Below are positions 37,468 to 61,707 of a stretch of DNA of 64,000 nt, piece after piece; the stretch's first letter is position 1; each line of letters begins with the position of its first letter. The notes beneath the pieces are model-generated. The model saw only the letters and a list, made by a program, of their open reading frames with translations. It had not been told where the DNA came from and ran no database searches. The position numbers and the translations under genes were made by a program. This DNA is from a virus (Duplodnaviria; Caudoviricetes), in IMG/VR virus record IMGVR_UViG_3300028048_000002, positions 32,001 to 96,000 of that record, one strand, 5' to 3'.

Positions 37468-37758
37468 TTAATAATCATATCCAAGTCTTTTATGATACTT
37501 AAGATAAGCATCAATGTCAGCTTTAAGCTCAGCTAAATTATAAGAATGACCACTTACTGTCTCTTGCAATTCATCATCTTCATCCGGATCCATCGACCAC
37601 CAATAAGATACTCCATCAATATCTCTATCTTTATACAACTCCGTCAATCTAACTTGTTGATATTTTGGAAGATTTTTAGCTACAGATTGATCTACATCAG
37701 GATTAGATGAAACTTGTATAGGTTTCCTACCTCTAGCAGCTTTGATAACTCGTTTCAT
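37468..37758 (-). CDS. MKRYIK-leader family protein
   Basis: MKRVIKAA start at 37758. Confidence 0.6.
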   Translation of the reverse strand: MKRVIKAARGRKPIQVSSNPDVDQSVAKNLPKYQQVRLTELYKDRDIDGVSYWWSMDPDEDDELQETVSGHSYNLAELKADIDAYLKYHKRLGYDY

Positions 37759-37762
37759 AATT

Positions 37763-38044
37763 CTATCCTTCATATAGTAACAAACCGTTTTTATGATCTA
37801 TATATCCAGAATCTTCGAGACTTTGCATGATGTCTTCATAAAGTTTATCTTCAAGCGCCTCTGTAAGAGTTGCATGAGTAGTGTAAAAATAATCTTGAAT
37901 TTGAGCATAAGTTTCAGATACTACATCATCATAACTAAAAGCTTCTCCACTTTCAATAAAATCTATAGTATTACTTAATGCTTCTTAATAACAAGCATCA
38001 TATACAGATTCGTTTAAACTGCTAGATTTAATATATCGTTTCAT
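37763..38044 (-). pseudogene. MKRYIK-leader gene with an in-frame TAA at codon 20
   Basis: MKRYIKSSSLNESVYDACY*EALSNTIDFIESG..LEDSGYID; TAA at 37985-37987; frame stays open to 37763. Confidence 0.65.
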
Positions 38045-38071
38045 ACCGCACCTCTAATATCTATAATTTTA

Positions 38072-38287
38072 TTAATATTGTTTATCTATCATATCCTCGT
38101 AACAAGCTGAAGTGAGTTCTTCTAGAAAATCAGCAGTTTTATCATCCCAACCACTTGAACCACTAAACCATTCAAGACATTCAACTAAAAGACGACCATA
38201 ATCTTCATAAGTTGTGCAAATTTCGATGATAGTGTCATACATATCACCATCATATTCTTCTACTACTTTATCAAGCATTCCACGCAT
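38072..38287 (-). CDS. Small acidic protein
   Basis: AAGGAG RBS; 71 aa, D/E-rich. Confidence 0.55.
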   Translation of the reverse strand: MRGMLDKVVEEYDGDMYDTIIEICTTYEDYGRLLVECLEWFSGSSGWDDKTADFLEELTSACYEDMIDKQY

Positions 38288-38340
38288 TATACTTCTCCTT
38301 AATAAGAATGTAACAACAACTTAAAAATGATATAATCTTT

Positions 38341-38796
38341 CTAGTTAATATATCCTTCAAGTTCTAGTTGATCTAATACAGCATCTTCTATTTCATCCAT
38401 GTCATCAATATCTAGGTGCCCTGCAACTTTTGCAACTTGAGCATAAACTTCATGCCGTATTTCATATTCATCTGCAATATCACCGTAATCGATAGCAGAA
38501 GAAACATTAAGCACAATTTCTTCAATAAGCTGCTGTTTATTCATTGTTTCGTAATAGGTGGATGCTTTAACAGCTTTACCTTTACTTTTAAGATAATCGT
38601 AGTACTTAATAATATCTACAATACTCTTAAAATCAGAATCAGAAATAGTAGGACTGTTATTGTATTCTTGCCACCATGTAAGGATATCATTTGGATCAAG
38701 AGACAATATACCAGCATCATACGCTTCACAAACATGATTTCGGAATTGTGAATCCCACCAACGTGGCTTTCTAGCACATGCAATATATCTTTTCAT
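38341..38796 (-). CDS. MKRYIK-leader family protein, two-domain
   Basis: MKRYIACA start; internal KAVKAS. Confidence 0.6.
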   Translation of the reverse strand: MKRYIACARKPRWWDSQFRNHVCEAYDAGILSLDPNDILTWWQEYNNSPTISDSDFKSIVDIIKYYDYLKSKGKAVKASTYYETMNKQQLIEEIVLNVSSAIDYGDIADEYEIRHEVYAQVAKVAGHLDIDDMDEIEDAVLDQLELEGYIN

Positions 38797-38814
38797 AAGT
38801 ATTATCCCCTTTAG

Positions 38815-39078
38815 CTAAAACAAAGATTCATCATCTTCCGCATCATATTCATATGCTGCTTCTTCAAGTTCCTCAGCTGCACGAACAAGATTTTCTCCGA
38901 GAGTTCCGATGTAATTTGCAAGCTCAGTATACGTAGAACAATATGTATATGCACCTCTTACACAGGTTTTAAGTTCGTAAGAAAGATTGTATATATCATC
39001 AAGAACTTCAAAAACTTGATCTAAATACTCTTCATCCCAACCTTCAAGGGAATTTGAAGCTTTAATTGACCTTTTCAT
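38815..39078 (-). CDS. MKRYIK-leader family acidic protein
   Basis: MKRSIKAS. Confidence 0.65.
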   Translation of the reverse strand: MKRSIKASNSLEGWDEEYLDQVFEVLDDIYNLSYELKTCVRGAYTYCSTYTELANYIGTLGENLVRAAEELEEAAYEYDAEDDESLF

Positions 39079-39124
39079 ATTAACTCCTGTTTAAAAGACT
39101 TAAAACTTATAAGCGAATATAAGA

Positions 39125-39319
39125 TTAAACGCTAATGTATGCATTGTAATTAAGCGATTTGCAGAAAACCTGACATGAATCTGCTTCAACATCAGTAATG
39201 AGAATATCATGTCCACAGATACAAGTTATCGTGCAGTTCAAGGCATCTTCAAGAGATTCAATATCAGCATGAGTAGAACAATCATGATCACAAACAGGAC
39301 AATGGAAGTAAAATTTCAT
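39125..39319 (-). CDS. Small zinc-binding protein
   Basis: CPVC..CICG. Confidence 0.5.
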   Translation of the reverse strand: MKFYFHCPVCDHDCSTHADIESLEDALNCTITCICGHDILITDVEADSCQVFCKSLNYNAYISV

Positions 39320-39331
39320 ACCTGCTCCTTC

Positions 39332-39518
39332 CTACCAATACTCTATGCTAAGCTTTTCCCTAATCATAGACCACAAGACACATTCATCATCACCGTAGCT
39401 ACCATCAGGCCATTTCTTATTTGCAATCAGATCCAAAACATCTTCAATCTGCTCAAAGGAAAAAACTTGATCATTCTTGATAGCTTCTCGCCTATTATCA
39501 AACGTGGTCTTGCGCATA
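39332..39518 (-). CDS. Small hypothetical protein
   Basis: Probable start MRKTTF after AAGGAG; start coordinate approximate. Confidence 0.45.
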
Positions 39519-39527
39519 TTGAACTCC

Positions 39528-39743
39528 TTAAAAATACATAAACAATGTTTGCTCAGATACTCCAAACTTTTCACAAAAGAACTTTACGCGTTTATCTAAT
39601 ACTTCAAGCCAATACTCTGCATTTTCCTTATCATAATCATTTCGATAAATGAAATAGTTAAACCAAGCTTGGCGAATGCTCTTGTTAGCCTTGATGAAAT
39701 TTTCTTCAATAGGAGCGTACAGATCTTCAAATTCTTCAGGCAT
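39528..39743 (-). CDS. Small hypothetical protein
   Basis: Probable start MPEEFE. Confidence 0.45.
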   Translation of the reverse strand: MPEEFEDLYAPIEENFIKANKSIRQAWFNYFIYRNDYDKENAEYWLEVLDKRVKFFCEKFGVSEQTLFMYF

Positions 39744-39745
39744 TG

Positions 39746-40090
39746 TTAGACCACCTTCCACATCTTTTTAGGTTCAACACCTTGAGGCAGATAACTCCAC
39801 AAGAAATTAGGTTCTTCACAATTGAGAATAGCTTGAGCTTCATCGAGTTTATTTTCGCAAACAAGACGAATAACTTCACGAAGAGCTGCCAACTGGCAAT
39901 TAACAAGTTCTTGTTCTTTAGACAAATAAAACCCGCAGTAACGAGAGCAACCTTCGTAGCGATAAACAAAACCAGGGCTCTTAACTTTCCCACGACAATC
40001 CTTGGGAGGTGTGAGTTGCCCGCGCTTGAATACTTTATACAGAAGATTGCACTGCTTGCGGGTGAAGTAATCGTAACTGAGATAACTCAT
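39746..40090 (-). CDS. Early protein
   Basis: AAGGAG RBS; downstream of the promoter at 40131-40159. Confidence 0.55.
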   Translation of the reverse strand: MSYLSYDYFTRKQCNLLYKVFKRGQLTPPKDCRGKVKSPGFVYRYEGCSRYCGFYLSKEQELVNCQLAALREVIRLVCENKLDEAQAILNCEEPNFLWSYLPQGVEPKKMWKVV

Positions 40091-40130
40091 GATAGTCTCC
40101 TTTTGGATCTTTGATTTCTATCATGTAATT

Positions 40131-40159
40131 ATTGTATAGTAAGTTGTTGAAAAAGTCAA
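40131..40159 (-). promoter_or_regulatory. Sigma70-type (early) promoter
   Basis: TTGACT-N17-TACAAT. Confidence 0.7.
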
Positions 40160-40180
40160 TAGAAAGTTTACATTAATCTG

Positions 40181-40411
40181 CTAATACTCTAATAGTTCCT
40201 CAAACACTCTACGTGTAGCTTCTTGATAACTATCAGACGTTTCATAAGCATTTCCAAACATAACCTCTCCTAGATTTTGAATATTTTCATCATTTCTAAT
40301 ATCTTGAAGAGTCCTCCAATTTGAAAATTGATTATTTCTTATATCTAAAGCTCTATCAACAAAAGAATTAATACTGTCAAATTGATAGTTACTCCTAATA
40401 TAACGTTTCAT
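40181..40411 (-). CDS. MKRYIK-leader family protein
   Basis: MKRYIRSN. Confidence 0.65.
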   Translation of the reverse strand: MKRYIRSNYQFDSINSFVDRALDIRNNQFSNWRTLQDIRNDENIQNLGEVMFGNAYETSDSYQEATRRVFEELLEY

Positions 40412-40414
40412 AAT

Positions 40415-40765
40415 CTACCTAACTTGCGGAATCAAATTGTCATCTAATTCATATGGGCCGTAAATAGTATACATCGTACCGTCATCTATAATGATGGTTT
40501 TGATGTGTTGTTTCTTAAACTTACTGAGGTCAATAGGTACTGTTTCATCTGCATAGAAATATTTGCCATCTTGATACTCTATATAGACTGAACCGTCCCC
40601 GCCGTATCCATCAACCCATGATTCTACACATTCAATCGCATATTGAAGAGCACGTTTTCTAGTAACTTCATCTACATGTGCTTCAAATTCACCATCAGTA
40701 TAAATCTTGAGTCCATCCTCTTCTCGCAACTCTAAGATATTTGATGAATTGATATATCGCTTCAT
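40415..40765 (-). CDS. MKRYIK-leader family protein
   Basis: MKRYINSS start at 40765. Confidence 0.65.
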   Translation of the reverse strand: MKRYINSSNILELREEDGLKIYTDGEFEAHVDEVTRKRALQYAIECVESWVDGYGGDGSVYIEYQDGKYFYADETVPIDLSKFKKQHIKTIIIDDGTMYTIYGPYELDDNLIPQVR

Positions 40766-40850
40766 TACTTCTACCAATCTTAAATATGCTGCTTTTTATT
40801 ACAAGCTTTTCACTCATCTATTCATATATGAATGTTAGGAATTGATTACA

Positions 40851-41210
40851 TTATCTATATCCGTAATTTTCACGAGGTGGATTCCATTCATCTTCCACAG
40901 CCCTACGAACCTGTTCTTTTGTAGGCTCTTTAAAATTCCACCATTCATGAGAATTCAAATAATCTACCGCCTCCTGTGCAGTTTTAAATCCTCCAACACC
41001 TCCGGTATAACCTGAGGGATACGTAAAAGCTATAGAATAAGGATAATTACTAAATCCCATATATATCTTTATACGATATCCATCAATTTTCAACTCATAT
41101 TCAATGCAATGCTGTTCTGCATACTTAGTTTTAAAATCATACTCGTTTACATCAAACATATCAAGAGTCAATAACTTGGTAGAAGTAGCTGACTTTATAT
41201 ATCTTTTCAT
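40851..41210 (-). CDS. MKRYIK-leader family protein
   Basis: MKRYIKSA. Confidence 0.65.
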   Translation of the reverse strand: MKRYIKSATSTKLLTLDMFDVNEYDFKTKYAEQHCIEYELKIDGYRIKIYMGFSNYPYSIAFTYPSGYTGGVGGFKTAQEAVDYLNSHEWWNFKEPTKEQVRRAVEDEWNPPRENYGYR

Positions 41211-41219
41211 GAAACTATC

Positions 41220-41591
41220 CTATCTTATGCTATTAGGAAAAATATGTTCATTATTTTTTAGGTGGAACCAAGCTCTCCCACAAAAATCTACTGCATCATA
41301 TGGTTCAAACATAAAATCTATGTCACCAGTATCTCTTTGTACTGCCGTTTCAAATCGTTTAAACAGATTCTTTACGAAAGAATATTCATAAAATTCAGAA
41401 GAACCTATATACTCATTGTAATCCGCTAACCAGATTAAAACAGAACCTTCTACACCATCATCTTCAACACGATAATGAAAATCACAATCATCAAAAAGTT
41501 CTAATTCCGTATTTTTAGAGTCTGCAATAGCTCGATCTAGATGAGGTAATCTCATTTTTAACTCTTTTGCAGCTTTTACATATCTTTTCAT
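41220..41591 (-). CDS. MKRYIK-leader family protein
   Basis: MKRYVKAA. Confidence 0.65.
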   Translation of the reverse strand: MKRYVKAAKELKMRLPHLDRAIADSKNTELELFDDCDFHYRVEDDGVEGSVLIWLADYNEYIGSSEFYEYSFVKNLFKRFETAVQRDTGDIDFMFEPYDAVDFCGRAWFHLKNNEHIFPNSIR

Positions 41592-41639
41592 ATTAACGCC
41601 TTTCTTATTAATTTAAAATTTCAAACGATATTAAATTAA

Positions 41640-41852
41640 TCAACATCTAAAAAGAGAATATACAGCTTGCGCAAACCCTGATTTATATGCATTTGTTGCA
41701 GTTGCATAATCGGGATCTTTTAATGAAAGCTCATATATTCGTCTGCTACTATCATACATATATGTATCGCCTTTACTAAGGGTCATTGCTTTATCCCATC
41801 CAGCGTTAAATTCTGAATTGGTATCACGAGAAGATTTGATATAAATTTTCAT
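41640..41852 (-). CDS. MKRYIK-leader family protein
   Basis: MKIYIKSS. Confidence 0.6.
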   Translation of the reverse strand: MKIYIKSSRDTNSEFNAGWDKAMTLSKGDTYMYDSSRRIYELSLKDPDYATATNAYKSGFAQAVYSLFRC

Positions 41853-42054
41853 ACTAACTACTCCTTACATAAATTTTATCTTAATTGGTATCCTATTTCA
41901 TAATTATCAAGTTGGATCATTTAAATATGATCTATTTGATTTAATATATTTTCCCTCTAGTTCTCCTTATTTAATAATTTAGCAACTTAACTTACAAATA
42001 CCATAAAGTATAATAGTTACAAAGTCAATAGTAATTGAAATATCTTATTTCAAG

Positions 42055-42387
42055 TTATTCTGAATCTTCGTAATATCCACAATTTGCGCATGCTTTAGAT
42101 TCTGAATCATAATAATCTGCAACACCACATTGAGGACAAGGTGTTAAATCAACAGATCTAGAATTTCTAAACCGATTAATAGCATATTTAATAAACTTGT
42201 CAATGCAATCTCTAGCTCCAGATTCTACTTCTGTTTGAGTATAACCAAAACCCGAAGCTTTAATAGATTTAATGTCTATAGCATCAGGAACTACAAATAC
42301 ATATCCTTTATTTTTAGGCGCAATCACATATTCAATTCCAAAATATTCGGACTTAAAAGATTTTGATGCTTTAATGTATCTTTTCAT
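42055..42387 (-). CDS. MKRYIK-leader family protein with a C-terminal zinc ribbon
   Basis: MKRYIKAS; CPQCG..CANCG. Confidence 0.65.
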   Translation of the reverse strand: MKRYIKASKSFKSEYFGIEYVIAPKNKGYVFVVPDAIDIKSIKASGFGYTQTEVESGARDCIDKFIKYAINRFRNSRSVDLTPCPQCGVADYYDSESKACANCGYYEDSE

Positions 42388-42402
42388 TTACACCTCCAAA
42401 CA

Positions 42403-42714
42403 TTACAAAACTAATTTTTCATATTCTATATTATTTGCATCTAGTAGATGTTCAAGATCAACAATATAAAGGAGTAATTTTCTATTTTCTTCTTTTACTT
42501 CATCTAGAAGTTCTTGAGCTTGTTCAAGCTTCTCTGAAGTATTTTGAAACTGTATCATAGCAGCTTCTTTTAGTTTTAACGCATCTTCTATATTTGAACT
42601 AGCAACATCTGCTTTAGTTTTATTTCTATTTACAACCGCATTTATAACAGCAACAATCGCACCGCCTCCACAAGCGGTTAAAATAGATACTAAAAATGTA
42701 ACATCAGAACTCAT
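42403..42714 (-). CDS. Holin-like membrane protein (N-terminal TM plus coiled coil)
   Basis: FLVSILTACGGGAIVAVINAVV followed by heptad repeats. Confidence 0.5.
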   Translation of the reverse strand: MSSDVTFLVSILTACGGGAIVAVINAVVNRNKTKADVASSNIEDALKLKEAAMIQFQNTSEKLEQAQELLDEVKEENRKLLLYIVDLEHLLDANNIEYEKLVL

Positions 42715-43163
42715 TCAGAACCCTCGTTATTTATAAATTCATCTGTAAGAACTTTTTTGTATCGTTTAATGTCTTCATGGGTATTTTTCACATATAGATA
42801 TTCATCTACAAGCAAAAATATTAGTAAAAACTGACCAAAGGCATCAAGCAGTATATAATACAATACCGGATTAAATAAATCTAATATTTCATAGTCTAAA
42901 AGTACCTGAGGGATGAAACTAAAAATTTCAATAACAATAATGCTAAAAAGCAATTTATCATACGGACCTCGACCTTTAATTCTAGCTAAAATTAGTTGTC
43001 CGTATAGCACAAATCTAACTACACATAATATTCCATTAAGATGTGCAAACATTTCTCCATAGAAACTTTGCATTAATGTAAATACATTAGATACCATTAA
43101 TAAGCTATATAAGAAAATGAATCCATATTTTCTTATTCTAAACCATTTTAAATAGCGTGACAT
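42711..43163 (-). CDS. Multi-pass membrane protein
   Basis: About 4 hydrophobic helices; ATGA-coupled to the holin-like gene. Confidence 0.55.
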   Translation of the reverse strand: MSRYLKWFRIRKYGFIFLYSLLMVSNVFTLMQSFYGEMFAHLNGILCVVRFVLYGQLILARIKGRGPYDKLLFSIIVIEIFSFIPQVLLDYEILDLFNPVLYYILLDAFGQFLLIFLLVDEYLYVKNTHEDIKRYKKVLTDEFINNEGSE

Positions 43164-43227
43164 ATCACCCTCACATAGTTATGACTATGGTGTATCTTAT
43201 TGATATATATGGTTACAAAAATTAAAA

Positions 43228-43285: not shown

Positions 43286-43507
43286 TTAGTCATAATAATG
43301 TCTAACAGATCTCTTAGTTGCTTCAATAGCTGTATCTAAAATCTTATCAAGCCAACGTTTAAACTCAGGTTTCTGATCCTCTAATTCAATTCCCAATCTA
43401 AGGTAATTATCTTTAAGTTCTATGCATAAAAGATCAATAATTTCATCTTCTGCTAGAAAATCATGTTTAGTGGGTGTTAGTTTTTCTGAAGAAACGATGT
43501 ATTTCAT
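43286..43507 (-). CDS. Leader-family-like small protein
   Basis: MKYIVSS start. Confidence 0.55.
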   Translation of the reverse strand: MKYIVSSEKLTPTKHDFLAEDEIIDLLCIELKDNYLRLGIELEDQKPEFKRWLDKILDTAIEATKRSVRHYYD

Positions 43508-43510
43508 TAT

Positions 43511-44594: not shown

Positions 44595-46289
44595 TTAACG
44601 TAGATCAGAAGATGTTAAGCAAATTACAAACTCAGAACTTTTTCTAAAATGAGATTGATATTTCAGTTCTTCTACAATATTAGCTTTATATTTATAAGTT
44701 TTATCAACTACAAATAAATAATATTTGCATTTAAATCTAGATATAATGATATCAATCCATTCATCGCAAGATTTAGTTATTTGATTATTACCTGTTAAGT
44801 ATATTTCGGAATTTCCATAAGGAGGACATGTAAATAAACTTTCATATTCTCCCCTTGAACTAAAAATATCTTTACATTTAAGTCTTACATCTATATTGTG
44901 AAACTTACAAAGTTGCTTGCTTTCTTCTATAGTTTCTGCTCTAATATCTTGCCCAATGTAAGATTTACCTAAACTAGCAGATCCTAGTAATCTTCCAGAA
45001 AACCCAGAAAACGGATCAAAGATTTCTACTACATTATTAAGATATTTTGATATTAAATATTTAGCTAAAACTGGATTAAACACAGATACTTTTGGTGCAA
45101 TTTTAGAAATATTAAAACCTTGTAAAACTTTAGATGGATCTACATTATCAATATATACTAATCTATTTGCAATAGATTTTTTTAACAACTCATCATCATA
45201 CCATGCATCATAAACAGATGGTTTATTGTATACATGACAATGCCAAATAGATTTATGAAATTGTCGAATAGAGGATAATCCATACCAACAACCTGATTTG
45301 TAGTTAGCAGTGTCATAGCTTATTAATTTTGCATAGTCTTTAAGTAACCTAGAATCTGAATAATTTGGATACGGAAAATCTATACTCCTGCACCATGTAA
45401 AGATTTCACCTTCATAATTAAATATATCAAGCTTTTGAGTTATCAATACAAGTAATTGATTTAATCCTCTCTCAAAATCATCTTCTTGTATAATTAAAAA
45501 CTTAGTACCTTCAGGTACAAGTTCTAATCTACGAATATCATTTTCAGGTAACACCCATAAACCATCAGGATCATCTAAATACCCGTGATAAAAACTCCCA
45601 TCGCAATCTATAAGAATTTTATACTCAGGAATATATAAATCAAATGAATGGGTAAAAGTCTCTCCTTGTATTATATATTCAGTTTCATATACGATTTTAT
45701 ACTCATTTAAAATAGCATGTAACCGTTTCTCTAAACTGCTAGGATTGTTTTTATACGCCAAGGCTGCTTTGCTACGTACTTCTTTACTCCCTATAGGTGC
45801 AACACTACCATATCTTTCAAGATTAGTCTTTTGCATTTTATCATTACGTCCAGGAATCTGAGAAGTATACTCCACTCCGTATTTATTTAAGCACGTTTGT
45901 TTACATTTTTCTTGAAACCAATTTGCTTGTACTGGCCAATCTACTCCATACTTTTCTCTAAAAATCTGTTTAGATTTTTCTTTAATCAAATCCGATTGAG
46001 CTGCATGCTTTACTCCATATCGCTTTAAATTAGTTTGCTCTTTCTTCTTCTGAAGTTCTTCAGATTGTTGAGAAAACGGGACACCAAATCTTTTGACCAT
46101 TGTGCGTTCTCTAAGTAACTCGGCACACTTTGTAGAACACGTTTGTTTATCTTTATTGACCCAGTTTATTTCAAACCGATTACCACAAACAACACAATCT
46201 TTATAATGAATATTATCACAATATCTTTGAGCATTATAATTAGGTATGAATTCTTGTCCACACAATTTACATATTTTCTTTTTTGGCAT
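44595..46289 (-). CDS. Homing-endonuclease-like protein (Zn ribbons, KYGV repeats, PD-(D/E)XK/Vsr-like domain) fused to an amino-DNA-methyltransferase-like domain
   Basis: TNLKRYGV-type repeats; SFDLYIPEYKILIDCDGSFYH; FDPFSGFSGR (SAM motif I) and FTCPPY (motif IV-like). Confidence 0.65.
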   Translation of the reverse strand: MPKKKICKLCGQEFIPNYNAQRYCDNIHYKDCVVCGNRFEINWVNKDKQTCSTKCAELLRERTMVKRFGVPFSQQSEELQKKKEQTNLKRYGVKHAAQSDLIKEKSKQIFREKYGVDWPVQANWFQEKCKQTCLNKYGVEYTSQIPGRNDKMQKTNLERYGSVAPIGSKEVRSKAALAYKNNPSSLEKRLHAILNEYKIVYETEYIIQGETFTHSFDLYIPEYKILIDCDGSFYHGYLDDPDGLWVLPENDIRRLELVPEGTKFLIIQEDDFERGLNQLLVLITQKLDIFNYEGEIFTWCRSIDFPYPNYSDSRLLKDYAKLISYDTANYKSGCWYGLSSIRQFHKSIWHCHVYNKPSVYDAWYDDELLKKSIANRLVYIDNVDPSKVLQGFNISKIAPKVSVFNPVLAKYLISKYLNNVVEIFDPFSGFSGRLLGSASLGKSYIGQDIRAETIEESKQLCKFHNIDVRLKCKDIFSSRGEYESLFTCPPYGNSEIYLTGNNQITKSCDEWIDIIISRFKCKYYLFVVDKTYKYKANIVEELKYQSHFRKSSEFVICLTSSDLR

Positions 46290-46338
46290 AATATACCTTT
46301 CAAAAATAATCATTGACAAGTATATTATAGTATATATG

Positions 46339-46503: not shown

Positions 46504-46755
46504 TTATAAATCCCACGAATCATCTTCCCAAGGATCATGCAACGAATTAAATAACGGATATTCACAATCTTCATCATAAACTATGAAATACTCTCCATCT
46601 TGTAATTCGTAAAAACTATTTTCAATTACTTGACGAAGTGTAAGGTTATAACAATCTCTGGCAACTTCTCTATCAGTATTTATATCGCAAAATTGAACAT
46701 TATACCAATTTCATGTATCGTAATATTCATCAGATGATTTAATATATCTTTTCAT
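46504..46755 (-). pseudogene. MKRYIK-leader gene with an in-frame TGA at codon 15
   Basis: MKRYIKSSDEYYDT*NWYNVQFCD..PWEDDSWDL; TGA at 46711-46713. Confidence 0.65.
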
Positions 46756-47584: not shown

Positions 47585-48259
47585 TTAGTACTCTTCATCA
47601 TCGATAGCATATTGAGAATCATTTAGAATATTTTCCAAATATTGTTTGTACATTTTTTTAAATGTTGCTTTAGTTTTAGATTGAATAGCTAATTCAATTA
47701 CATCTTCATTAAACATCTGATAATCATAATTTTCAGCAAGCTTTTGTTTAAAATCTGATGAATAAAACCAAATACCTCCCATACCCATTTGTGTGGAAGG
47801 TTCTAACACAACTCCTAATGTATCTTCAACTTCTTGTTGTATTTTTTCTAATTCCTCCCCAGCATCAGTTTGTGAATACAATGAATCAATTCCATCATTA
47901 GATTCTTGTTCTAGTTGATTACGCAGACCTTTCCATCCCCCTATAGGTATTTCCATTTGTATATAAAAATACAAAGAGTTAGAATAAAGACCTTGACCAG
48001 CTTCAATATTTGGATCATCTGTATATTTTAATAATTCAGATTTTAACTGTTCATCATATATTTTTTTATCGTGTTGAGATAAAATAATATCAGTAGAATA
48101 GTCATACCCAGTAAATTTTTTTCCTTTATCTGTATATGTATATTTTTTTATATTCTTTAACTCTATAGTACGACCTAAAACTTTAGAAAATAAATTTGCA
48201 ATTTGTTCTTTAGTTAATGGAATTGATTTAGATTGATTTGCTTTAATATATCTTTTCGT
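47585..48259 (-). CDS. MKRYIK-leader family protein with an ACG start codon; C-terminal 'EPS-Q-G-GG' domain
   Basis: ACG AAA AGA TAT ATT AAA GCA at 48259, open and in frame with track ORF 47585-47974. Confidence 0.6.
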   Translation of the reverse strand, partial: TKRYIKANQSKSIPLTKEQIANLFSKVLGRTIELKNIKKYTYTDKGKKFTGYDYSTDIILSQHDKKIYDEQLKSELLKYTDDPNIEAGQGLYSNSLYFYIQMEIPIGGWKGLRNQLEQESNDGIDSLYSQTDAGEELEKIQQEVEDTLGVVLEPSTQMGMGGIWFYSSDFKQKLAENYDYQMFNEDVIELAIQSKTKATFKKMYKQYLENILNDSQYAIDDEEY

Positions 48260-50974: not shown

Positions 50975-52081
50975 ATGAAAGTTGGTGAGAACATGAAAAA
51001 ATGTCAATACTGTAATAAAAAATTTGAACCTAGAAATAATAGACAAAAATACTGTGAGGGTCCTCATATTAGAATCTGCCCTGTATGCAAGAACGAATAT
51101 TTAGAGAAAGACAATTGGCAACTTCAATTTCCACCACATGCTTGTTCTTATAAATGCAGGGGAATTCTACAGTCTCAAACTAAAGCTAACAAACCTAAGA
51201 AGAAAAGAAAGCTTATCCAACTATTAGAAGATAATCCTCAATATATAGATAAATTTGATTCAGCTAACATATTAAATAGAGGTAAACTAATATATGAACT
51301 TGAAAAACTTCTTCAAGATAACAACATTCAATATATGCTGCCTATCCATATTGAGAATGAAAGATATGACGTTTGGTTAAAAGCTTCGAATACTGTTTTA
51401 TTTGTAGCGGAGTTTTCAGAAGACATCAACCACAATCGTAATAAAGTAAAATTAGCAGAATCAAAAGGATACAATTGCTTCATTATCTACCCTTGGGATG
51501 ATTTAAATAAAATAGTTCAACAATTTAGACCAAAAGTGAAAGTTGATTTAGACAAATGTTCACTATTCAGACTGAATAGAAAACCTTCAAACGAGTTTTT
51601 AAATAATTATCATCTACAAAATTCATGTAGAAATCAATTATCGTTTTGGGGTATTGTTAGAGAGAATGAAATCCTTCAGATAATAACATTTGGTAAACCT
51701 AGATTTTCTAAAAATCACTCTATTGAGATAATGAGATATTGCACCAAACCTGAAATTAAAATTGACGGTAACTACATAAACTTGTTTTATGGAGTCCAAG
51801 CACTGCAATATTTGCAAAATGTAGTTGGATATGAACAAATTGGAAGGTTCCAGGATTTTAACTTCGAGCAACTTGGATTCATCTTACAAAAAACAACCCC
51901 ACCACAAGAAGTATGGTCAAAAGAAAACAAGCACATAACAGCTTCTTTGCTACGTGCTCGCGGATACGATCAATTATTTAGTACTAATTACGGGAAGGGT
52001 GTTAGTAATGAGATGTTGATGTTACAGAATGGTTGGTTACCTGTTTACGATTGTGGGCAGAAGGTTTTTGTATTTAGATAG
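50975..52081 (+). CDS. Hef-like free-standing homing endonuclease-related protein
   Basis: N-terminal Zn ribbons; FLNNYHLQ, ITFGKPRF, EIMRYC, VYDCGQKVF; the only sizeable plus-strand gene. Confidence 0.65.
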   Translation: MKVGENMKKCQYCNKKFEPRNNRQKYCEGPHIRICPVCKNEYLEKDNWQLQFPPHACSYKCRGILQSQTKANKPKKKRKLIQLLEDNPQYIDKFDSANILNRGKLIYELEKLLQDNNIQYMLPIHIENERYDVWLKASNTVLFVAEFSEDINHNRNKVKLAESKGYNCFIIYPWDDLNKIVQQFRPKVKVDLDKCSLFRLNRKPSNEFLNNYHLQNSCRNQLSFWGIVRENEILQIITFGKPRFSKNHSIEIMRYCTKPEIKIDGNYINLFYGVQALQYLQNVVGYEQIGRFQDFNFEQLGFILQKTTPPQEVWSKENKHITASLLRARGYDQLFSTNYGKGVSNEMLMLQNGWLPVYDCGQKVFVFR

Positions 52082-52134: not shown

Positions 52135-52911
52135 CTACTCCTCAAATGCGTACTCGTTGAGAATATTCTCGAGATAAGCTCGATACTTCTTTTTGAACTC
52201 AGTTTTGTTTTTGGATTCAATGGCTATATCTATTGTTTCGTTGTTAAAGGTTTGGTAATCATAATTGGAAGCTAGTGTACTGTCATCTTCATTAGACAGG
52301 AACCAAATACCTCCTTGCCCGCCCTGTATTGAGGGTTCTAGCCAAATTCCGAGCGCGTTTTCAACTTCTTGTTGAATGGATTCAAGTTTTTCACCCGCCT
52401 CTGTTTGCTCATACAAGGGATCAATTCCGTCTTCAGCTTCACGTTGTAAGTTATTTACAAGTGATTTCCAGTTAATGCGTTTTGATTTACCTGCACCTTC
52501 TAATTCTTCACGGATTTGCTTCATCTGCTTATTATCATATTTCGGATCTGCATACTGGGAAACATCTAAACCTGAGGAGAGGCCGTAACGAATTTGCCTC
52601 ATCTGCTTCCAACTATATTTCGGATCTGCGTACACAGATACATCAAGACCTTTTTCAAGACCCTCACGGATCTCCCACATCTGCTCCCAATCGTATTTTG
52701 GGTCTGCGTACACAGATACATCGACACCGTCTTCAAGTCCTTGAAGAATCTGACCCATCTCCATAGATCCAAATTTCTTAGGGTCTGCGTACACAGATAC
52801 ATCAAGACCCTTTTCGAGACCATCACGAATCTTCTCCATCTGGTACCTATCAAACACACCCATGTTTTCATAATCTTCAATTGTTTTTGCGGATTTTATG
52901 TATCTTTTCAT
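52135..52911 (-). CDS. MKRYIK-leader protein: 4 YADPKY repeats plus 'EPS-Q-G-GG' domain
   Basis: MKRYIKSAKTIEDY..WKSLVNNLQREAEDGID. Confidence 0.72.
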   Translation of the reverse strand: MKRYIKSAKTIEDYENMGVFDRYQMEKIRDGLEKGLDVSVYADPKKFGSMEMGQILQGLEDGVDVSVYADPKYDWEQMWEIREGLEKGLDVSVYADPKYSWKQMRQIRYGLSSGLDVSQYADPKYDNKQMKQIREELEGAGKSKRINWKSLVNNLQREAEDGIDPLYEQTEAGEKLESIQQEVENALGIWLEPSIQGGQGGIWFLSNEDDSTLASNYDYQTFNNETIDIAIESKNKTEFKKKYRAYLENILNEYAFEE

Positions 52912-55950: not shown

Positions 55951-56031
55951 TAAAATCTTCCTATCTTTTAACTGGTACATCTATAATTACATAAGGTTAC
56001 ATAGCTATATTCACATCTAGAAAACATCTTT

Positions 56032-56451: not shown

Positions 56452-56568
56452 ATCTATCTTCTTTCTTACTACTTGAGCCTAGTCAAAAACTTCCGTTGAT
56501 TTAATATAAAGATTATAAATTATGAAATTACAACAATTATCACTTCTTATTATTTTTATATGTTGGAA

Positions 56569-57336
56569 TTAGATAAACGTTAATTCAATATTACCTGTAC
56601 CCGAAGATAATTTCAATACATAATTATCAGAATTAAATTTTTCTAGTATTGAAAGTACGTATTCTTTTATTTTTCTATTGTACCTTTTTGCTAAATGTTG
56701 ATTTTGACTGCCGAGATCTATATAACCTGTCCACGTTAATCTGAAATTATAATTATTTAATTGATCTATTTCTTCTGGTAAGAATACATTGTTGTAATTA
56801 ACAGCACTTAGAAGAGTTTTACCTGTATATGTTTTATCACCTGTAGGTATTTTCGGTCCACTTAAAATAAATTTGTTTTTATTCTTTTTAGTTACTAAGG
56901 ATTCATCAAAAGGCTTATCTGAAATAACGTTAAATATTTCTTCTAAAATATCTAACGCTTCTTCAAATTTATCATTTTTAGAATTTACTTTTAGATATTT
57001 TTGACGTAATAGTTGTCTTTTTCGATTAAACTCACTTCTAGACATATGACCTCTAGCAGTTGTTATGTATTCATAATTATCATAGTCAGCTAAACCAAAT
57101 TCAACTACACTATCATAGTCATAACCAGAATTTAAAGATTCTTCTAAATAAGCTTTTAAATCATCTACATATGCGTAATCTGCCCAAATATCTCCAAGGT
57201 CTTCGTCATTATATATTTCTATACCACCGTTTTTAATTGAAATTTTACATCCTTGGTCTCGTTTAAACTTGATCGCATCTTTAAATAACGTATCAATATA
57301 TTCATATTCAAATGATGCTTTAATGTATCGTTTCAT
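56569..57336 (-). CDS. MKRYIK-leader family protein
   Basis: MKRYIKAS start at 57336. Confidence 0.68.
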   Translation of the reverse strand: MKRYIKASFEYEYIDTLFKDAIKFKRDQGCKISIKNGGIEIYNDEDLGDIWADYAYVDDLKAYLEESLNSGYDYDSVVEFGLADYDNYEYITTARGHMSRSEFNRKRQLLRQKYLKVNSKNDKFEEALDILEEIFNVISDKPFDESLVTKKNKNKFILSGPKIPTGDKTYTGKTLLSAVNYNNVFLPEEIDQLNNYNFRLTWTGYIDLGSQNQHLAKRYNRKIKEYVLSILEKFNSDNYVLKLSSGTGNIELTFI

Positions 57337-57632
57337 TATTTCCACCAATCATCGCTATTTTGCTTTTTATTCCAGGCTTTCCAATCCTCTAGTTCTAATG
57401 CAGTCGTATTAGAAGGAATCCAGAAACCTTGAGATGTATATTTAAGCTTAGACCATTTATCTCCTAAATTAGCCCATAATGAACCATCGTTACTCTCATA
57501 TACTTGTAAATCATCATAATTCTTTCCCCAATAAGAAAACGATACAGTTTCATTTGTAGGTTGTAATTCAACTTCTTTATTACCATGAAATTGAGTTTTA
57601 ACTGTAATTGATGATCTTATGTATAGTTTCAT
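57336..57632 (-). CDS. MKRYIK-leader family protein
   Basis: MKLYIRSS start at 57632. Confidence 0.62.
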   Translation of the reverse strand: MKLYIRSSITVKTQFHGNKEVELQPTNETVSFSYWGKNYDDLQVYESNDGSLWANLGDKWSKLKYTSQGFWIPSNTTALELEDWKAWNKKQNSDDWWK

Positions 57633-57713
57633 ATGATTAATCATCTCTCTACTAAATCTAAAAGATGGTGTTCTCGAGCACCTAAGCTATTAGAAACCAC
57701 CAAAGATTATCTT

Positions 57714-58448
57714 TCACATCCTATCTGCGCGGGTGTTCCATGCAGTTATAGCTTCGGCTTCAGATGGATAATTGTCTATGAAATGCCCGTGGCTTTGTTC
57801 GCTCTGCAAATCCGATTCGCAGAAAACACCATAGACCTTACAATCATCGTCGTATTCGAGCACTTTCACGCTTGCTTCTCCCCCGCAGAAAGGACAAAGC
57901 TCCGTTACCTTCCTTCCACAGCCTAGCTCGGCGATTCTCGCAATCGCGTCATCTGATGTGTGTCCGTCCCATTCGGGCGCGTACTCACGCTCCTTGCAGT
58001 CGAACATCTCCCAGTACGGGTCGAGGTCGTAGTGGTACGTGGCCTGGCCTTTCGGAGTATCGATACCGACTATGAACATGCCGTCGTACATCGTGCCGTC
58101 GTGGTGCTTGAGAGCTTTCCACGCAAGCTCTCTATGGTCGCGTACAATCACACTGAACAGCACCGCCCTGTGATGGTACAGCTCGTTGAACGTGTGGTAT
58201 CCGTCACTCGTGTTACCGTTGATTTCGCTCCCCAGCGTCGCGGCTATGGCCTGCTCGGGCGTGACCGCCATTATCAGCTTCGCGCTAGGTGTGAGCTGCA
58301 TGGCTGTGAAGCCGTTCCAGCTCGTCTCGCACGCGCCCATGTGGTCGTTCGTCGTGTACTCGATGCCGCGCTCTGTTAGCTTGGCACGCAGCTCGGTCGT
58401 TCGGTTGTCGATCATCGCGCTACCTCTCAATAAATAACAACAGTCCAA
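57714..58448 (-). CDS. High-GC fusion protein: WDGH-type domain plus Lar-like (restriction alleviation) zinc domain
   Basis: SDGYHTFNELYHHR..WDGHT; LCPFCGGEA..EAITAWNTR. Confidence 0.6.
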   Translation of the reverse strand: MDCCYLLRGSAMIDNRTTELRAKLTERGIEYTTNDHMGACETSWNGFTAMQLTPSAKLIMAVTPEQAIAATLGSEINGNTSDGYHTFNELYHHRAVLFSVIVRDHRELAWKALKHHDGTMYDGMFIVGIDTPKGQATYHYDLDPYWEMFDCKEREYAPEWDGHTSDDAIARIAELGCGRKVTELCPFCGGEASVKVLEYDDDCKVYGVFCESDLQSEQSHGHFIDNYPSEAEAITAWNTRADRM

Positions 58449-58495
58449 TAAAGTTCAAAGCGCATATCAACAAAGCGATGATTATTGCGATCGCG

Positions 58496-58729
58496 CTAGG
58501 CTTCGCACACTTCTATGTCTATTACGCGTGTATTCCATTTCTTTGCAGCTGCTTCAATAGCGTCTACGGGTGTCTTATATCCACATCTGCTTGTTTCAAG
58601 ATTGAAATTACATTCTGGACAATGTGTGTATGCTGACCACGATTCATCACCTAACACATTTGTCCATCGTTTTGGCAAAGGTTCCCCTACTTCGTTTCCA
58701 CAAAACGGACACGGTTTCAGCTCGATCAT
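58496..58729 (-). CDS. Lar-family restriction-alleviation-like protein
   Basis: LKPCPFCG..CPEC..AAKKWNTR. Confidence 0.65.
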   Translation of the reverse strand: MIELKPCPFCGNEVGEPLPKRWTNVLGDESWSAYTHCPECNFNLETSRCGYKTPVDAIEAAAKKWNTRVIDIEVCEA

Positions 58730-58792
58730 TCGCTCTCTTCTTTCACCTCGACCTCAAAAGAATTCGCGTTATATTTACTTACCCATTTTTCC

Positions 58793-59563
58793 TTACAGTC
58801 TACATAAATTCGTAAGATAACTCTCGTAGCTTGATTTGAATTCAGCTTCATTTGAAGCGTTTGCGGCTAAATAAAAGATGTCATTGTTGAAATCATTATA
58901 ATCATAATCTTCCACCAAAGCTTCATCAGTAGAATTATCCCAAATCCAAACGCTACCGACTCCAGCTTGAACTGAGGGCTCTACGTAAATATCGAGTCTT
59001 TCTTCTACTTGCTTACATAAGCTGTTTAAATACCTTCCAGCTTCTGTTTGTTCATATAAAGAATCAATACCGCTTTCAGCTTCACTTTCTAACTTATCGA
59101 AGAGTGATTTCCAGATGGGTGTTGATTTTTTCTGAGGCTTGAGCAAACCCTGCAGCTCCCAACGAATTTGCTGCATCTGCGACCAACTATATTTCGGATC
59201 TGTATATAAAGATACGTCAACACCGGATTCGAGACCTTTGCGAATTTGCTCCATCTGATGGTCATCATATTCCGGATCTGCATATTGGAAAACATCTATA
59301 CCGGATTCGAGGCCTCTACGAATTTCCCTCATCTGCGACCAACCATATTTTGGATCTGCGTACTCAGATACGTCAATACCGGATTCGAGGCCGCGACGGA
59401 TTTCAATCATCTGCGACCAATCATATTTCTTTGGATCTGCGTACACAGACACATCAACACCGTTTTTGAATCCTTCACGAATCTGATCCATCTGATTTCT
59501 GTCAAAAACACCCATATTTTCGTAATCTTCAAGGGTTTTTGATGATTTTATATATCTTTTCAT
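58793..59563 (-). CDS. MKRYIK-leader protein: 4 repeats plus 'EPS-Q-G-GG' domain
   Basis: MKRYIKSSKTLEDY..EPSVQAGVG. Confidence 0.72.
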   Translation of the reverse strand: MKRYIKSSKTLEDYENMGVFDRNQMDQIREGFKNGVDVSVYADPKKYDWSQMIEIRRGLESGIDVSEYADPKYGWSQMREIRRGLESGIDVFQYADPEYDDHQMEQIRKGLESGVDVSLYTDPKYSWSQMQQIRWELQGLLKPQKKSTPIWKSLFDKLESEAESGIDSLYEQTEAGRYLNSLCKQVEERLDIYVEPSVQAGVGSVWIWDNSTDEALVEDYDYNDFNNDIFYLAANASNEAEFKSSYESYLTNLCRL

Positions 59564-59565
59564 AA

Positions 59566-60447
59566 TTAGTATCTTTCAAACATATCAACTAAGTAAGATT
59601 CAACATCATCGGAAACATACAAGCCTTGCTTCTCTAACATATCAATCATCTTATCTATACATTCATCTTCAAAATCCTCATCCCCAAGGTCTGTTGTATC
59701 ATTTATGTAAGAAACAACTTCATCTTTATGTTTTTCTGCGAATGCAATTGCTTCTTTATAATCTTCATCTCCGTTGAGAATATTCTCGAGGTAATCCTGG
59801 TAACGTTTTTTGAACTCAGTCTTATTTTTAGATTCGATAGCCATATCTATTGTGTCTTCGTTAAACGTTTGGTAATCGTAATTGGAAGCTAGTGTGCTGT
59901 CATCTTCACTCGAATAGAACCAGATACCTCCCCTCCCAGCTTGTATTGAGGGTTCTAGCCAAATTCCGAGAGCATTTTCAACTTCTTGCTGGATGGATTC
60001 GAGTTTTGAACCCGCATCTGTTTGCTTATAAAGGGAATCAATTCCATCTTCTGCTTCTCTTTGTAGCTGATTTACAAGTGATTTCCAGTTTAAACGTTTT
60101 TGTTTTGTGGGTTTTTCGAGGCCTTTACGGATCTTGCTCATCTGCTCCCAATCGTATTTTAGATCTGCGTACACAGAAACATCAAGACCTTTTTCAAGAC
60201 CCTCACGGATCTCCTCCATCTGCGCAGAATTAAATTTCGGATCTGCATACCAAGATACGTCAACACCTTTTTCAAGGCCTTCGCGAATCTCGCTCATCTG
60301 TGCCCAAATGTATTTTGGATCTGCGTATACAGATACGTCAACACCTTTTTCAAGGCCTTCGCGGATCTCGTTCATCTGATACTCATTAAATACACCCATG
60401 TTTGCATAATCTTCAATTGTTTTTGCTGCTTTTATGTATCTTTTCAT
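59566..60447 (-). CDS. MKRYIK-leader protein: 3 repeats, 'EPS-Q-G-GG' and 'NDTTDL' domains
   Basis: MKRYIKAAKTIEDY. Confidence 0.72.
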   Translation of the reverse strand: MKRYIKAAKTIEDYANMGVFNEYQMNEIREGLEKGVDVSVYADPKYIWAQMSEIREGLEKGVDVSWYADPKFNSAQMEEIREGLEKGLDVSVYADLKYDWEQMSKIRKGLEKPTKQKRLNWKSLVNQLQREAEDGIDSLYKQTDAGSKLESIQQEVENALGIWLEPSIQAGRGGIWFYSSEDDSTLASNYDYQTFNEDTIDMAIESKNKTEFKKRYQDYLENILNGDEDYKEAIAFAEKHKDEVVSYINDTTDLGDEDFEDECIDKMIDMLEKQGLYVSDDVESYLVDMFERY

Positions 60448-60492
60448 TTTTACTTATCCTTTTTATTTATTAAACCAAGCAATTTCATCTAG

Positions 60493-60873
60493 TTATGCAT
60501 AATCTTTTAAATAATATTTAGCTTCATCCCACTTCCTAATAGCTTTATCATATCCATATAGTAACCAATATCTGATAGCTTTCATTTTTCTCCAAGTATA
60601 TTTAGGATTCATATATTCTTCTACATCTACACCATCAATTAAACCCATACGAATCTGACCCATTTGTTTTGCATCAAATCTTGGATCTGCATATATATCA
60701 ACATCTACATTATCTGAAAGTCCTAATTTAATTTGATGCAATTGATCTTTTGTAAATCCTTGTTCTTCATATTCAGACATTATCATTTTATACCCAGCAG
60801 ATTTTTCTCTACTAGATAATTCTGGAAAAGGCTTATTCCAATTACGATAAGATGCTTTAACATATATTTTCAT
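60493..60873 (-). CDS. MKRYIK-leader protein with 2 diverged repeats
   Basis: MKIYVKAS; QIKLGLSDNVDVDIYADPRF. Confidence 0.65.
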   Translation of the reverse strand: MKIYVKASYRNWNKPFPELSSREKSAGYKMIMSEYEEQGFTKDQLHQIKLGLSDNVDVDIYADPRFDAKQMGQIRMGLIDGVDVEEYMNPKYTWRKMKAIRYWLLYGYDKAIRKWDEAKYYLKDYA

Positions 60874-60910
60874 ATAGTACCTTCTTCTATATATAGCATT
60901 TATTATACTG

Positions 60911-60939
60911 ATTGTAAGTTATAACACAATATAAGTCAA
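60911..60939 (-). promoter_or_regulatory. Sigma70-type promoter
   Basis: TTGACT-N17-TACAAT. Confidence 0.6.
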
Positions 60940-60955
60940 TACTAAACTAAAAAAT

Positions 60956-61438
60956 CTAATCTACTTCATTATCCGTACAGTAGTATATTCCATCAGAAGG
61001 AATTAATTCTTTTGCAATATCTTGATAAAGTGTAGAAGTAAGCCCATGCAGATCTCCAGCATTATCGCTATAATACTGAACTACTTCCTTCTTGAATGAT
61101 ACAAAACACATAGGATTAGATAATTCATCAAATTCAATGGTTTGAATATCTACAACAGCTGGATTCCCTTCAAAAGCTTTCTTTACTATTGAAGCTTTCC
61201 AGTTATCTAAATTTGCCGGAATTACATTAATTAATACTTCTACATTACCAAACTGCTTAGTCATAGGAAGCAACTGAGCAATAGCTTCAGCTTTAGAGGC
61301 ATTATCTACATAAACTTTTAAAATTAAATTATCATCATCAAACTCTACATTAACTTCAGGATCAACTCCAAACAAAGCATCAACTTGACGATAATATACC
61401 TCCCAAGGTGCAGAAAGACTTAGATTCTCATTAAACAT
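60956..61438 (-). CDS. Conserved-looking phage hypothetical protein
   Basis: LSAPW..LFGVDPEV..FGNV..FKKEVVQY. Confidence 0.6.
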   Translation of the reverse strand: MFNENLSLSAPWEVYYRQVDALFGVDPEVNVEFDDDNLILKVYVDNASKAEAIAQLLPMTKQFGNVEVLINVIPANLDNWKASIVKKAFEGNPAVVDIQTIEFDELSNPMCFVSFKKEVVQYYSDNAGDLHGLTSTLYQDIAKELIPSDGIYYCTDNEVD

Positions 61439-61470
61439 TGTTACTCCTATCTTATATTTTTGAAATTATT

Positions 61471-61707
61471 CTAGAGTCTATCATACACAGACTTTACGTG
61501 ACCATTTCGTATATACGATTTAGCCTGACCTATTAAAGCTTTAAAATAATCCATACACGATTCAGCAGCTTCATCTAAAGTTAGCCCATAATCCTCACAC
61601 AAATTTAATAAATTGCCTTCAATATCTTCTAGAAGGTCTTCTTCAGATAATAAATTTCTAGGATCAGTTTCTACATATCTTGTATTTGCAAAAACTTTTT
61701 TCTTCAT
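61471..61707 (-). CDS. Small acidic protein with a leader-like start
   Basis: MKKKVFAN; AAGGAG RBS. Confidence 0.55.
   Translation of the reverse strand: MKKKVFANTRYVETDPRNLLSEEDLLEDIEGNLLNLCEDYGLTLDEAAESCMDYFKALIGQAKSYIRNGHVKSVYDRL

Follow-up and report, generated by a model that had tools for sequence, protein, structure and literature searches.

Leader genes in the phage genome

The stretch of DNA analysed here (the window) comprises 64,000 nucleotides, bases 32001-96000 of a 162,817-bp IMG/VR record of a phage of the Caudoviricetes. It contains a long array of minus-strand genes, otherwise mostly unrelated, whose products share a short N-terminal peptide, or leader, with the consensus MKRYIK-A/S-A/S. 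The array lies within the structural region, flanked by the sheath gene on one side and by tail-fibre genes on the other, the order in the genome being terminase, portal, sheath, array, tail fibres, baseplate, protease and capsid. The genome has a guanine + cytosine (GC) content of ~32%, and 201 of its 216 called genes are on the minus strand. An earlier analysis of the window (the sequence-only reading) had proposed that the peptide is a T4-like capsid-targeting leader removed by a protease.

The strict leader pattern was defined as M-K-[RKIL]-[YSV]-[IV]-x-[ASC]. Six-frame translation of the whole genome gives 30 matches, all 30 on the minus (coding) strand and none on the plus strand; reversed-pattern controls give ~0. 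The matches occupy two zones, at genome positions 4.2-5.4 kb (zone A) and 69.8-92.9 kb (zone B). A slightly wider pattern brings the number of leader genes to 31, and looser variants raise zone A to ~11 genes. The motif is not equally frequent at the starts of metabolic genes, the pattern that the sequence-only reading had expected of simple codon bias: across the genome, it stands at the start of no gene for replication, nucleotide metabolism, the tail or a major head component. A literature search on the literal leader string returned no record.

Twenty-six of the 27 starts listed earlier read the motif in the minus-strand translation. The exception, at 48259, has the codon ACG and reads TKRYIKAN, and the gene at 47585-48259 is therefore without a start codon. 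Among four looser versions that had been pointed out, those at 43507 (MKYIVSS), 61707 (MKKKVFAN) and 19913 (MKKVLVAS) end compatibly, whereas that at 13666 (MKKLIRYP) does not. Two further genes, starting at 38044 and 46755, are interrupted by in-frame stops. Stop-codon recoding was considered and rejected, since one stop is TAA and the other TGA, and no suppressor is found among the eight phage tRNAs; both genes are therefore probably decaying copies. The three broken genes, with frames that still look coding, suggest recent decay and a birth-and-death turnover in the array.

Within the leader, synonymous codons vary. Arg is encoded by AGA (13), CGA (5), CGT (4), CGG (1) and AGG (1), Ile by ATT (11), ATC (10) and ATA (7), and Tyr by TAT (17) and TAC (8), with positions 7-8 varying among GCN and TCN codons. 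This usage resembles synonymous usage across the genome, and in the DNA upstream of the leader genes only the ribosome-binding site is conserved, which points to selection on the peptide, as the sequence-only reading had argued. In 141 leaders from six genomes, the residue preferences from the first position to the eighth are M, K, R>K>L/I/V, Y, I>V, K>R, S~A and S~A>N. Although the search pattern leaves positions 6 and 8 free, K/R make up 80% at the former and S/A/N/T 87% at the latter. A Sec, Tat or lipoprotein signal peptide was rejected, as the residues past MKRYIK[AS][AS] are polar or acidic and variable, with no hydrophobic core.

Bodies of the leader proteins

BLASTP sorts the 31 leader proteins, after removal of their first eight residues, into 22 clusters: a family of nine, one pair and 20 singletons. 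The array had been described as at least 27 unrelated proteins. Most bodies are indeed unrelated by this measure, but the count was overstated, with nine proteins being paralogues of one helical-repeat family and three of the listed genes being broken. PHROGs and Pfam scans of 33 leader-type proteins gave no significant family, and no known effector family was matched. Many bodies had also been called very rich in Asp and Glu, and most leader proteins do have an isoelectric point (pI) of 4.1-5.3; the median pI of the whole proteome is 5.1, however, so that acidity does not set them apart. An anti-defence or DNA-mimic function of these proteins is purely conjectural.

One member of the repeat family, the 258-residue product of 52135..52911, was modelled with AlphaFold2 (AF2) at a predicted local distance difference test score (pLDDT) of 92. 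The model consists of five helical repeats followed by a C-terminal alpha/beta domain, with residues 1-10 forming an unstructured tail (leader pLDDT 59). A Foldseek search of the PDB with this model returned nothing better than E 0.6.

Homologues of the repeat family, found with the product of 59566..60447 as query, are widespread, and 32 of the 120 listed carry the leader. Bacterial and other homologues begin right at the first repeat, without a leader. Still others have a propeptide of 25-35 residues that resembles the capsid propeptide (MKRKFTAIPGKGI...). This long propeptide ends in ...I-[TK]-A-A where the short leader ends in ...I-C-A-A, and the same T-Y-N-G-F-D body follows. In these comparisons the leader behaves as a module, one body family occurring without it, with it or with the longer propeptide.

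Head maturation machinery

A gp23-like capsid protein is encoded at L015:2065-3519 on the minus strand (Pfam Gp23, 1.3e-14). Just upstream of its gene, the product of L015:3532-4998, also on the minus strand, matches the head maturation protease family PHROG 207 (3.8e-21) and, weakly, Peptidase_S77. From residue ~170 on, the C-terminal 320 residues of this protein are coiled-coil-like, with matches to ATG16 and Lebercilin, compatible with a protease fused to a scaffold.

A profile search with the protease domain against the sequences of solved structures was negative, and a fold search was needed. The AF2 model of residues 1-165, built on a 35-sequence alignment, has a pLDDT of 90. Foldseek places T4 gp21 first (5jbl; template modelling score (TM) 0.68, E 5e-6), followed by the proteases of Kaposi's sarcoma-associated herpesvirus, pseudorabies virus (PrV), human cytomegalovirus (HCMV) and herpes simplex virus. 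His56, the only invariant His, and Ser111 are conserved throughout the alignment. Many relatives' proteases have an N-terminal extension with [IV]-K-[AS]. When the protease domain and residues 1-45 of a repeat-family leader protein were predicted as a complex, the score was 0.04, which weighs neither for nor against an interaction.

Downstream of the capsid gene, L015:572-892 on the minus strand (genome 12572-12892) encodes a 106-residue protein with a highly acidic centre and basic ends, in which the words I-A-A-S, V-M-A-D and V-K-A-S stand at the boundaries. In 33 relatives, this acidic core protein starts with a basic propeptide that ends in [IV]-x-A, and its tail, also basic, contains 1-3 V-x-A-S words. 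The layout resembles that of the excised acidic internal peptides of T4, and the 106-residue protein is likely the source of such a peptide.

An inferred cut word in the head proteins

The cut word [IV]-x-[AS]-[ASGN] was derived without the leader, and expected counts were taken from shuffles. It occurs 10 times in the scaffold part of the phage's own protein, against 2.0 expected (about 5-fold, p=2e-4), and 4 times in residues 1-70 of the capsid protein, against 0.45 (about 9-fold, p=2e-4). No enrichment is seen in the protease domain or in the mature part of the capsid protein. Among proteins of at least 100 residues, the protease-scaffold has the highest density of the word.

The scaffolds of 51 distinct relatives contain the word 446 times, against 115 expected. 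When all residue pairs two positions apart are ranked, I.A, V.A and I.S come out on top, with L.E and I.E at expectation; likewise, the T4-type word [LIV]-x-E is not enriched in the phage's own scaffold or in those of its relatives. The scaffold of Bacillus phage HSE3, a distant cultured relative used as a control, shows the reverse, with 23 [LIV]-x-E words against 13 expected (p=0.002) and 2 small-residue words against 1.9.

The positions of the word are conserved as well. Of 52 sequences, 49 have F-T-x-I-A-A-S (I-A-A-S at residue 151) directly after the protease domain, 46 have [IV]-C-[AS]-[AS] fifteen residues further on, and 44 have V-T-A-S-T (V-T-A-S at residue 436) ~50 residues before the C-terminus. 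The capsid propeptide is variable save for islands of the cut word, and ends in [IV]-[TM]-[AG]-A-T-N-T at the onset of strong conservation. The I/V-x-[AS] sites that the sequence-only reading had proposed to look for in head proteins are thus enriched and conserved in the scaffold, the capsid propeptide and the core protein. Given this enrichment and positional conservation, the leader's Y-I-K-A↓S (the arrow marking the presumed bond) fits the inferred cut site, with I at P3, a small residue at P1 and Ser or Ala next.

Leader genes in related phages

The sequencing runs nearest to the phage are bovine-gut metagenomes. When 12 kb of the array were compared with GenBank phages by megablast, no match was found, and tblastn with one leader protein found only three faecal contigs, all unannotated. 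The capsid protein matches cultured phages only at ~27% identity (Listeria LIS04, Bacillus HSE3 and Streptococcus GXN1), whereas 57 IMG/VR contigs encode capsid proteins ~60-67% identical to it, and the phage therefore belongs to a sizeable uncultured clade. Its host is probably Gram-positive, as judged by lysin domains.

The same leader peptide is retained in relatives at this level of capsid identity. In scans of whole records, most relatives have 0-5 leader genes, and the phage and at least five others have 17-31. These genes are always on the coding strand, and pattern controls give ~0. Such a spread in copy number (0-5 in some, about 30 in others), along with the occurrence of broken copies, is typical of fast-changing accessory genes.

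In several relatives, a leader protein of 62-108 residues is encoded in the head-gene cluster, ~2 kb upstream of the capsid gene and before the protease gene. Other leader genes directly follow the capsid gene. A Logan contig from a sister phage (L111:10001-13826), which encodes one of the homologues with the long propeptide, carries this second, longer leader (MKRKFTAIPGKGIFA...) on three proteins whose genes separate the capsid gene from the neck genes; the capsid gene there is followed by a DUF7487/Mom-like gene. Among the ten largest leader proteins of relatives, five have BspA-type leucine-rich repeats (LRR_5) and one has LRV repeats. Large leader proteins of relatives are encoded at L088:4406-7387, L109:17564-19201, L075:16988-18271, L105:15903-17333 and L110:6174-7490.

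Expression signals are sparse. A scan for consensus promoters and terminators revealed no enrichment over shuffles, and k-mer searches yielded a few sigma-70-like sites and the word TTCGTTAAT, neither of which defines an expression class. In one bovine-gut RNA library, short contigs exactly match parts of several leader genes, a match for which DNA carry-over is a possible source. A long terminal repeat with early genes was rejected, the terminal repeat of the record being only 127 bp.

Proposed function of the leader and alternative explanations

We consider it probable that the N-terminus common to these proteins serves as a propeptide for capsid targeting and processing, and that the proteins bearing it are cargo loaded into the head and clipped there. 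The gp23-like capsid protein, the gp21-fold protease, the cut word, the modularity of the leader and its position in the head-gene clusters of relatives all agree with the T4-like role suggested by the sequence-only reading.

In the pathway that we propose from these sequences, each protein would be made with a flexible seven-residue tag, M-K-R-Y-I-K-(A/S), which would direct it to the core of the growing prohead, as the T4 tag does. The phage's protease of the gp21/assemblin fold, an N-terminal fusion to the scaffold, would then cut at [I/V]-x-[A/S]↓[S/A/N...]. The same enzyme would free itself from the scaffold at the conserved I-A-A↓S, trim the scaffold C-terminus at V-T-A↓S and fragment the scaffold. 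It would also remove the ~66-residue capsid propeptide at I-T-A↓A and excise the acidic core peptide. The clipped cargo would stay in the head and presumably be delivered with the DNA. We infer here that the word is a cut site, which bond would be cut, that the tag has a targeting role besides being cut, and that the cargo remains in the head, is injected and acts on the host.

A broader proposal, which we put forward only tentatively, is that a clade of gut phages with T4-like head genes has a gp21-family protease cutting after Ala/Ser in place of Glu, with the cutting rule and site layout of herpesvirus assemblins, and uses a seven-residue tag to load up to ~30 fast-changing proteins as an injected arsenal against the host. 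The clade would comprise cattle- and human-gut phages, with cargo of LRR, LRV and new helical-repeat types; the repeats suggest binding roles.

Several points weigh against a targeting and processing role. The cargo is acidic and the internal proteins of T4 are basic, which makes co-packaging beside DNA less obviously compatible, and thirty-one cargo species are far above the number in T4. Strong sigma-70-like promoters lie upstream of zone A (genome 8082) and inside zone B (genome 76555), and such promoters at the arrays could mean early expression. The cut word is short and low in information. It is not depleted in the cargo bodies but slightly enriched (22 against 13.8 expected), where proteins exposed to the protease would be expected to avoid it, although folded domains might protect such sites. 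All characterised gp21-family proteases cut after Glu (PMC9026906), and a small residue at P1 is unprecedented for the family. Finally, the clade has no cultured member, as judged by the GenBank phage megablast, the capsid search and the tblastn search with a leader protein.

The leader could instead be a recognition tag for other machinery, such as a host or phage unfoldase/protease (the tag being a degron that times the turnover of takeover proteins), a modifying enzyme or a localisation factor, with a coincidental resemblance to the word in the head proteins. Short N-terminal tags do serve as ClpX-type degrons. The sigma-70-like promoters near both arrays, and a leaderless gene for a WDGH protein with a Lar restriction-alleviation domain that gives the region an accessory or takeover appearance, would suit such a role, as would cut words that are not avoided in the bodies. 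We nevertheless regard it as unlikely. It leaves unexplained why the last four leader residues are the word that is enriched and conserved in the scaffold, the capsid propeptide and the core protein, why an extension like the capsid propeptide replaces the leader at the same junction, and why leader genes stand in the head-gene cluster of relatives. As for a modifying enzyme, the genome has no radical S-adenosylmethionine (radical-SAM) gene. A leader of the type found in ribosomally synthesized and post-translationally modified peptides, read by a radical-SAM maturase, was accordingly rejected (PF04055, 0 matches in the genome; 14 control genomes positive).

It appears distinctly unlikely that the proteins are targeted and clipped but serve as assembly core or filler, being expelled or degraded, as scaffold is, when DNA enters rather than delivered as effectors. 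Most leader proteins are acidic like the internal peptides and scaffold fragments of T4, and unlike its basic internal proteins (PMC8442874). Cut words inside many bodies make further cutting of some of them possible, and no leader protein matches a known effector family. Filler would, however, hardly account for 22 unrelated folds, including binding-type repeats (BspA-type LRR and LRV in relatives), and a copy number that ranges from 0-5 to ~30 among close relatives, with broken copies, is the pattern of accessory genes and not of assembly parts.

An AAA second codon and AT-rich early codons favour initiation, and the genes stand in tandem arrays with nine true paralogues. Yet a shared start that is only an expression feature, or a relic of common descent or gene conversion in tandem duplicates, with no targeting, is very improbable: synonymous sites are free and residues fixed, including the GCN/TCN codons at positions 7-8; upstream DNA is unconserved; the capsid and sheath genes, presumably highly expressed, have no leader; the bodies are unrelated at BLAST level, with one body family also existing without the leader; and relatives with capsid proteins ~60-67% identical retain the peptide.

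Leader genes of the window and neighbouring genes

The leader genes and looser members in the window are given in Table 1.

Table 1. Leader genes and looser members, in window coordinates
N-terminus	Type	Product	Position	Strand	Remarks
MKKVLVAS	looser member	86 aa	19653..19913	-	among tail genes
MKRVIKAA	leader gene	96 aa	37468..37758	-	
MKRYIKSS	leader gene, probable pseudogene		37765..38044	-	in-frame TAA at 37987 after 19 codons; 73 more coding-like codons
MKRYIACA	leader gene	151 aa	38341..38796	-	
MKRSIKAS	leader gene	87 aa	38815..39078	-	body similar by eye to looser member 19913
MKRYIRSN	leader gene	76 aa	40181..40411	-	
MKRYINSS	leader gene	116 aa	40415..40765	-	
MKRYIKSA	leader gene	119 aa	40851..41210	-	
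MKRYVKAA	leader gene	123 aa	41220..41591	-	
MKIYIKSS	leader gene	70 aa	41640..41852	-	
MKRYIKAS	leader gene	110 aa	42055..42387	-	
MKYIVSS	looser member	73 aa	43286..43507	-	one residue shorter, end still I-V-S-S
MKRYIKSS	leader gene, probable pseudogene		46506..46755	-	in-frame TGA at 46713 after 14 codons; 69 coding-like codons after
TKRYIKAN	leader-type gene, start codon lost		47585..48259	-	ACG for ATG; 224 codons open
MKRYIKAA	leader gene	103 aa	48322..48633	-	
MKRYIKAS	leader gene	40 aa	48844..48966	-	
MKRYIKAA	leader gene	208 aa	49193..49819	-	helical-repeat paralogue family
MKRYIKAA	leader gene	249 aa	50090..50839	-	helical-repeat paralogue family
MKRYIKSA	leader gene	258 aa	52135..52911	-	helical-repeat family; AF2-modelled
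MKRYIKSN	leader gene	183 aa	53213..53764	-	
MKRYIKAS	leader gene	216 aa	53881..54531	-	in repeat-family cluster by BLASTP
MKRYIKAS	leader gene	259 aa	54535..55314	-	helical-repeat family
MKKYIKSA	leader gene	188 aa	55381..55947	-	in repeat-family cluster
MKRYIKAA	leader gene	139 aa	56032..56451	-	
MKRYIKAS	leader gene	255 aa	56569..57336	-	
MKLYIRSS	leader gene	98 aa	57336..57632	-	
MKRYIKSS	leader gene	256 aa	58793..59563	-	helical-repeat family
MKRYIKAA	leader gene	293 aa	59566..60447	-	helical-repeat family; query for leaderless and long-propeptide homologues
MKIYVKAS	leader gene	126 aa	60493..60873	-	in repeat-family cluster
MKKKVFAN	looser member	78 aa	61471..61707	-	

Genes without the leader are interspersed in the array. 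The minus-strand gene at window 57714-58415 encodes a 233-residue protein with a WDGH domain (4e-41) and a Lar restriction-alleviation domain (3e-7), and lies in a GC-richer island (0.43). A 574-residue DUF7487 protein is encoded at 44595-46319 (minus strand). The single plus-strand open reading frame (ORF) in the region, at 50975-52081, encodes 368 residues beginning MKKCQYCNKKF and has no family match; terminator-like hairpins are found near its 3' end.

Elsewhere in the window, a full-length NAD-dependent DNA ligase is encoded at 11141-13159 on the minus strand (PHROG 3869, 1e-164). A second ligase-like protein, at L011:8633-10156, matches only in the ligase C-terminal part. The region 14000-18000 is a GC-rich island (0.44-0.46) with the sole cluster of plus-strand ORFs, two of which (263 and 307 residues) have no Pfam match; it may be a foreign insertion. 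Three large minus-strand genes (441, 515 and 799 residues) follow one another at 31704-36995, in a stretch with a GC content of 0.44. The 515- and 799-residue proteins both begin MTDKY.G, and the latter matches tail-fibre PHROGs; these genes look like paralogous tail fibres. Eight tRNA genes, for Leu, Gly, Met, Gln, Thr, Ser, Lys and Arg and with 0 suppressors, are clustered at L012:8796-12626.

Comparison with known systems

The T4 tag is the closest known system, with its defining Glu cut seemingly replaced by a herpesvirus-like Ala/Ser cut. The T4 capsid-targeting sequence is MKTYQEFIAE (PMC8442874). Its residues 4 and 7 function in targeting, Tyr4 being important, and residues 8 and 10 in processing; relatives of T4 have varied proteins with tag-like leaders (PMC9026906). 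As in the T4 proteins IPI, IPII and IPIII, which are cut by gp21, a short N-terminal tag stands here on otherwise unrelated proteins. Both tags start M-K-x-Y, and the tag described here ends in the inferred cut motif of a gp21-fold protease, in a genome that also encodes a gp23-like capsid protein. The cargo set differs among relatives in both systems (PMC9026906).

The differences from T4 are also clear. The tag has seven residues here and 10 in T4, and the inferred P1 is Ala/Ser here and Glu in T4 (L/I-x-E). The cargo is acidic, whereas the T4 internal proteins are basic, and its ~30 genes form two arrays, compared with 3-5 genes in T4. Protease and scaffold form one protein here, whereas T4 has a separate protease gene. 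The host is probably Gram-positive.

The herpesvirus assemblins (UL26/UL80) have the same protease fold and the same fusion of an N-terminal protease to a C-terminal scaffold, in the layout protease-R site-scaffold-M site (PMC4498786). The inferred [IV]-x-A↓S matches the PrV sites YLQA-T and VQA-S (PMC4498786) and the consensus (V/L/I)-x-A↓S. The conserved words after the protease domain and near the scaffold C-terminus would correspond to the release and maturation sites. The release site of HCMV is Y-V-K-A↓S, and the leader's Y-I-K-A↓S is close to it. The protease domain itself is nearer to T4 gp21 (TM 0.68) than to the herpesvirus enzymes (TM about 0.5), and the herpesvirus-like specificity could be convergent. 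Herpesviruses are not known to mark numerous cargo proteins with such a cut site at the N-terminus as an address.

Phages phiKZ, 201phi2-1 and SPN3US have dozens of head-internal proteins, comparable to the ~30 candidate cargo proteins here, and a gp21-family protease that removes N-terminal propeptides with several cut sites in each (PMC9026906, PMC10052503). Their proteases cut at S/A/G-x-E, however, and they have long propeptides in place of a single short tag common to all the proteins. The genome described here is 163 kb, and the capsid search finds no phiKZ-like relative.

What would be new in this phage is the switch to an Ala/Ser code, the assemblin-like layout of sites and their presence in a gut-phage clade of Gram-positive type. 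If the proposed pathway is true, the enzyme would be the first prohead protease of the gp21 family to have a small residue at P1, and the maturation of phages and herpesviruses would be linked by a substrate code besides the fold. The seven residues would constitute a minimal address tag for loading foreign proteins into the capsids of phages of Gram-positive gut bacteria, as the T4 tag does in E. coli. The leader and the [IV]-x-[AS] words in scaffolds would provide an annotation rule for the processed head proteins and cargo of the clade. The candidate virion-delivered effectors would then include about 30 dark-matter genes in each genome and hundreds in the clade as a whole, a directed list for anti-defence and host-takeover screens.

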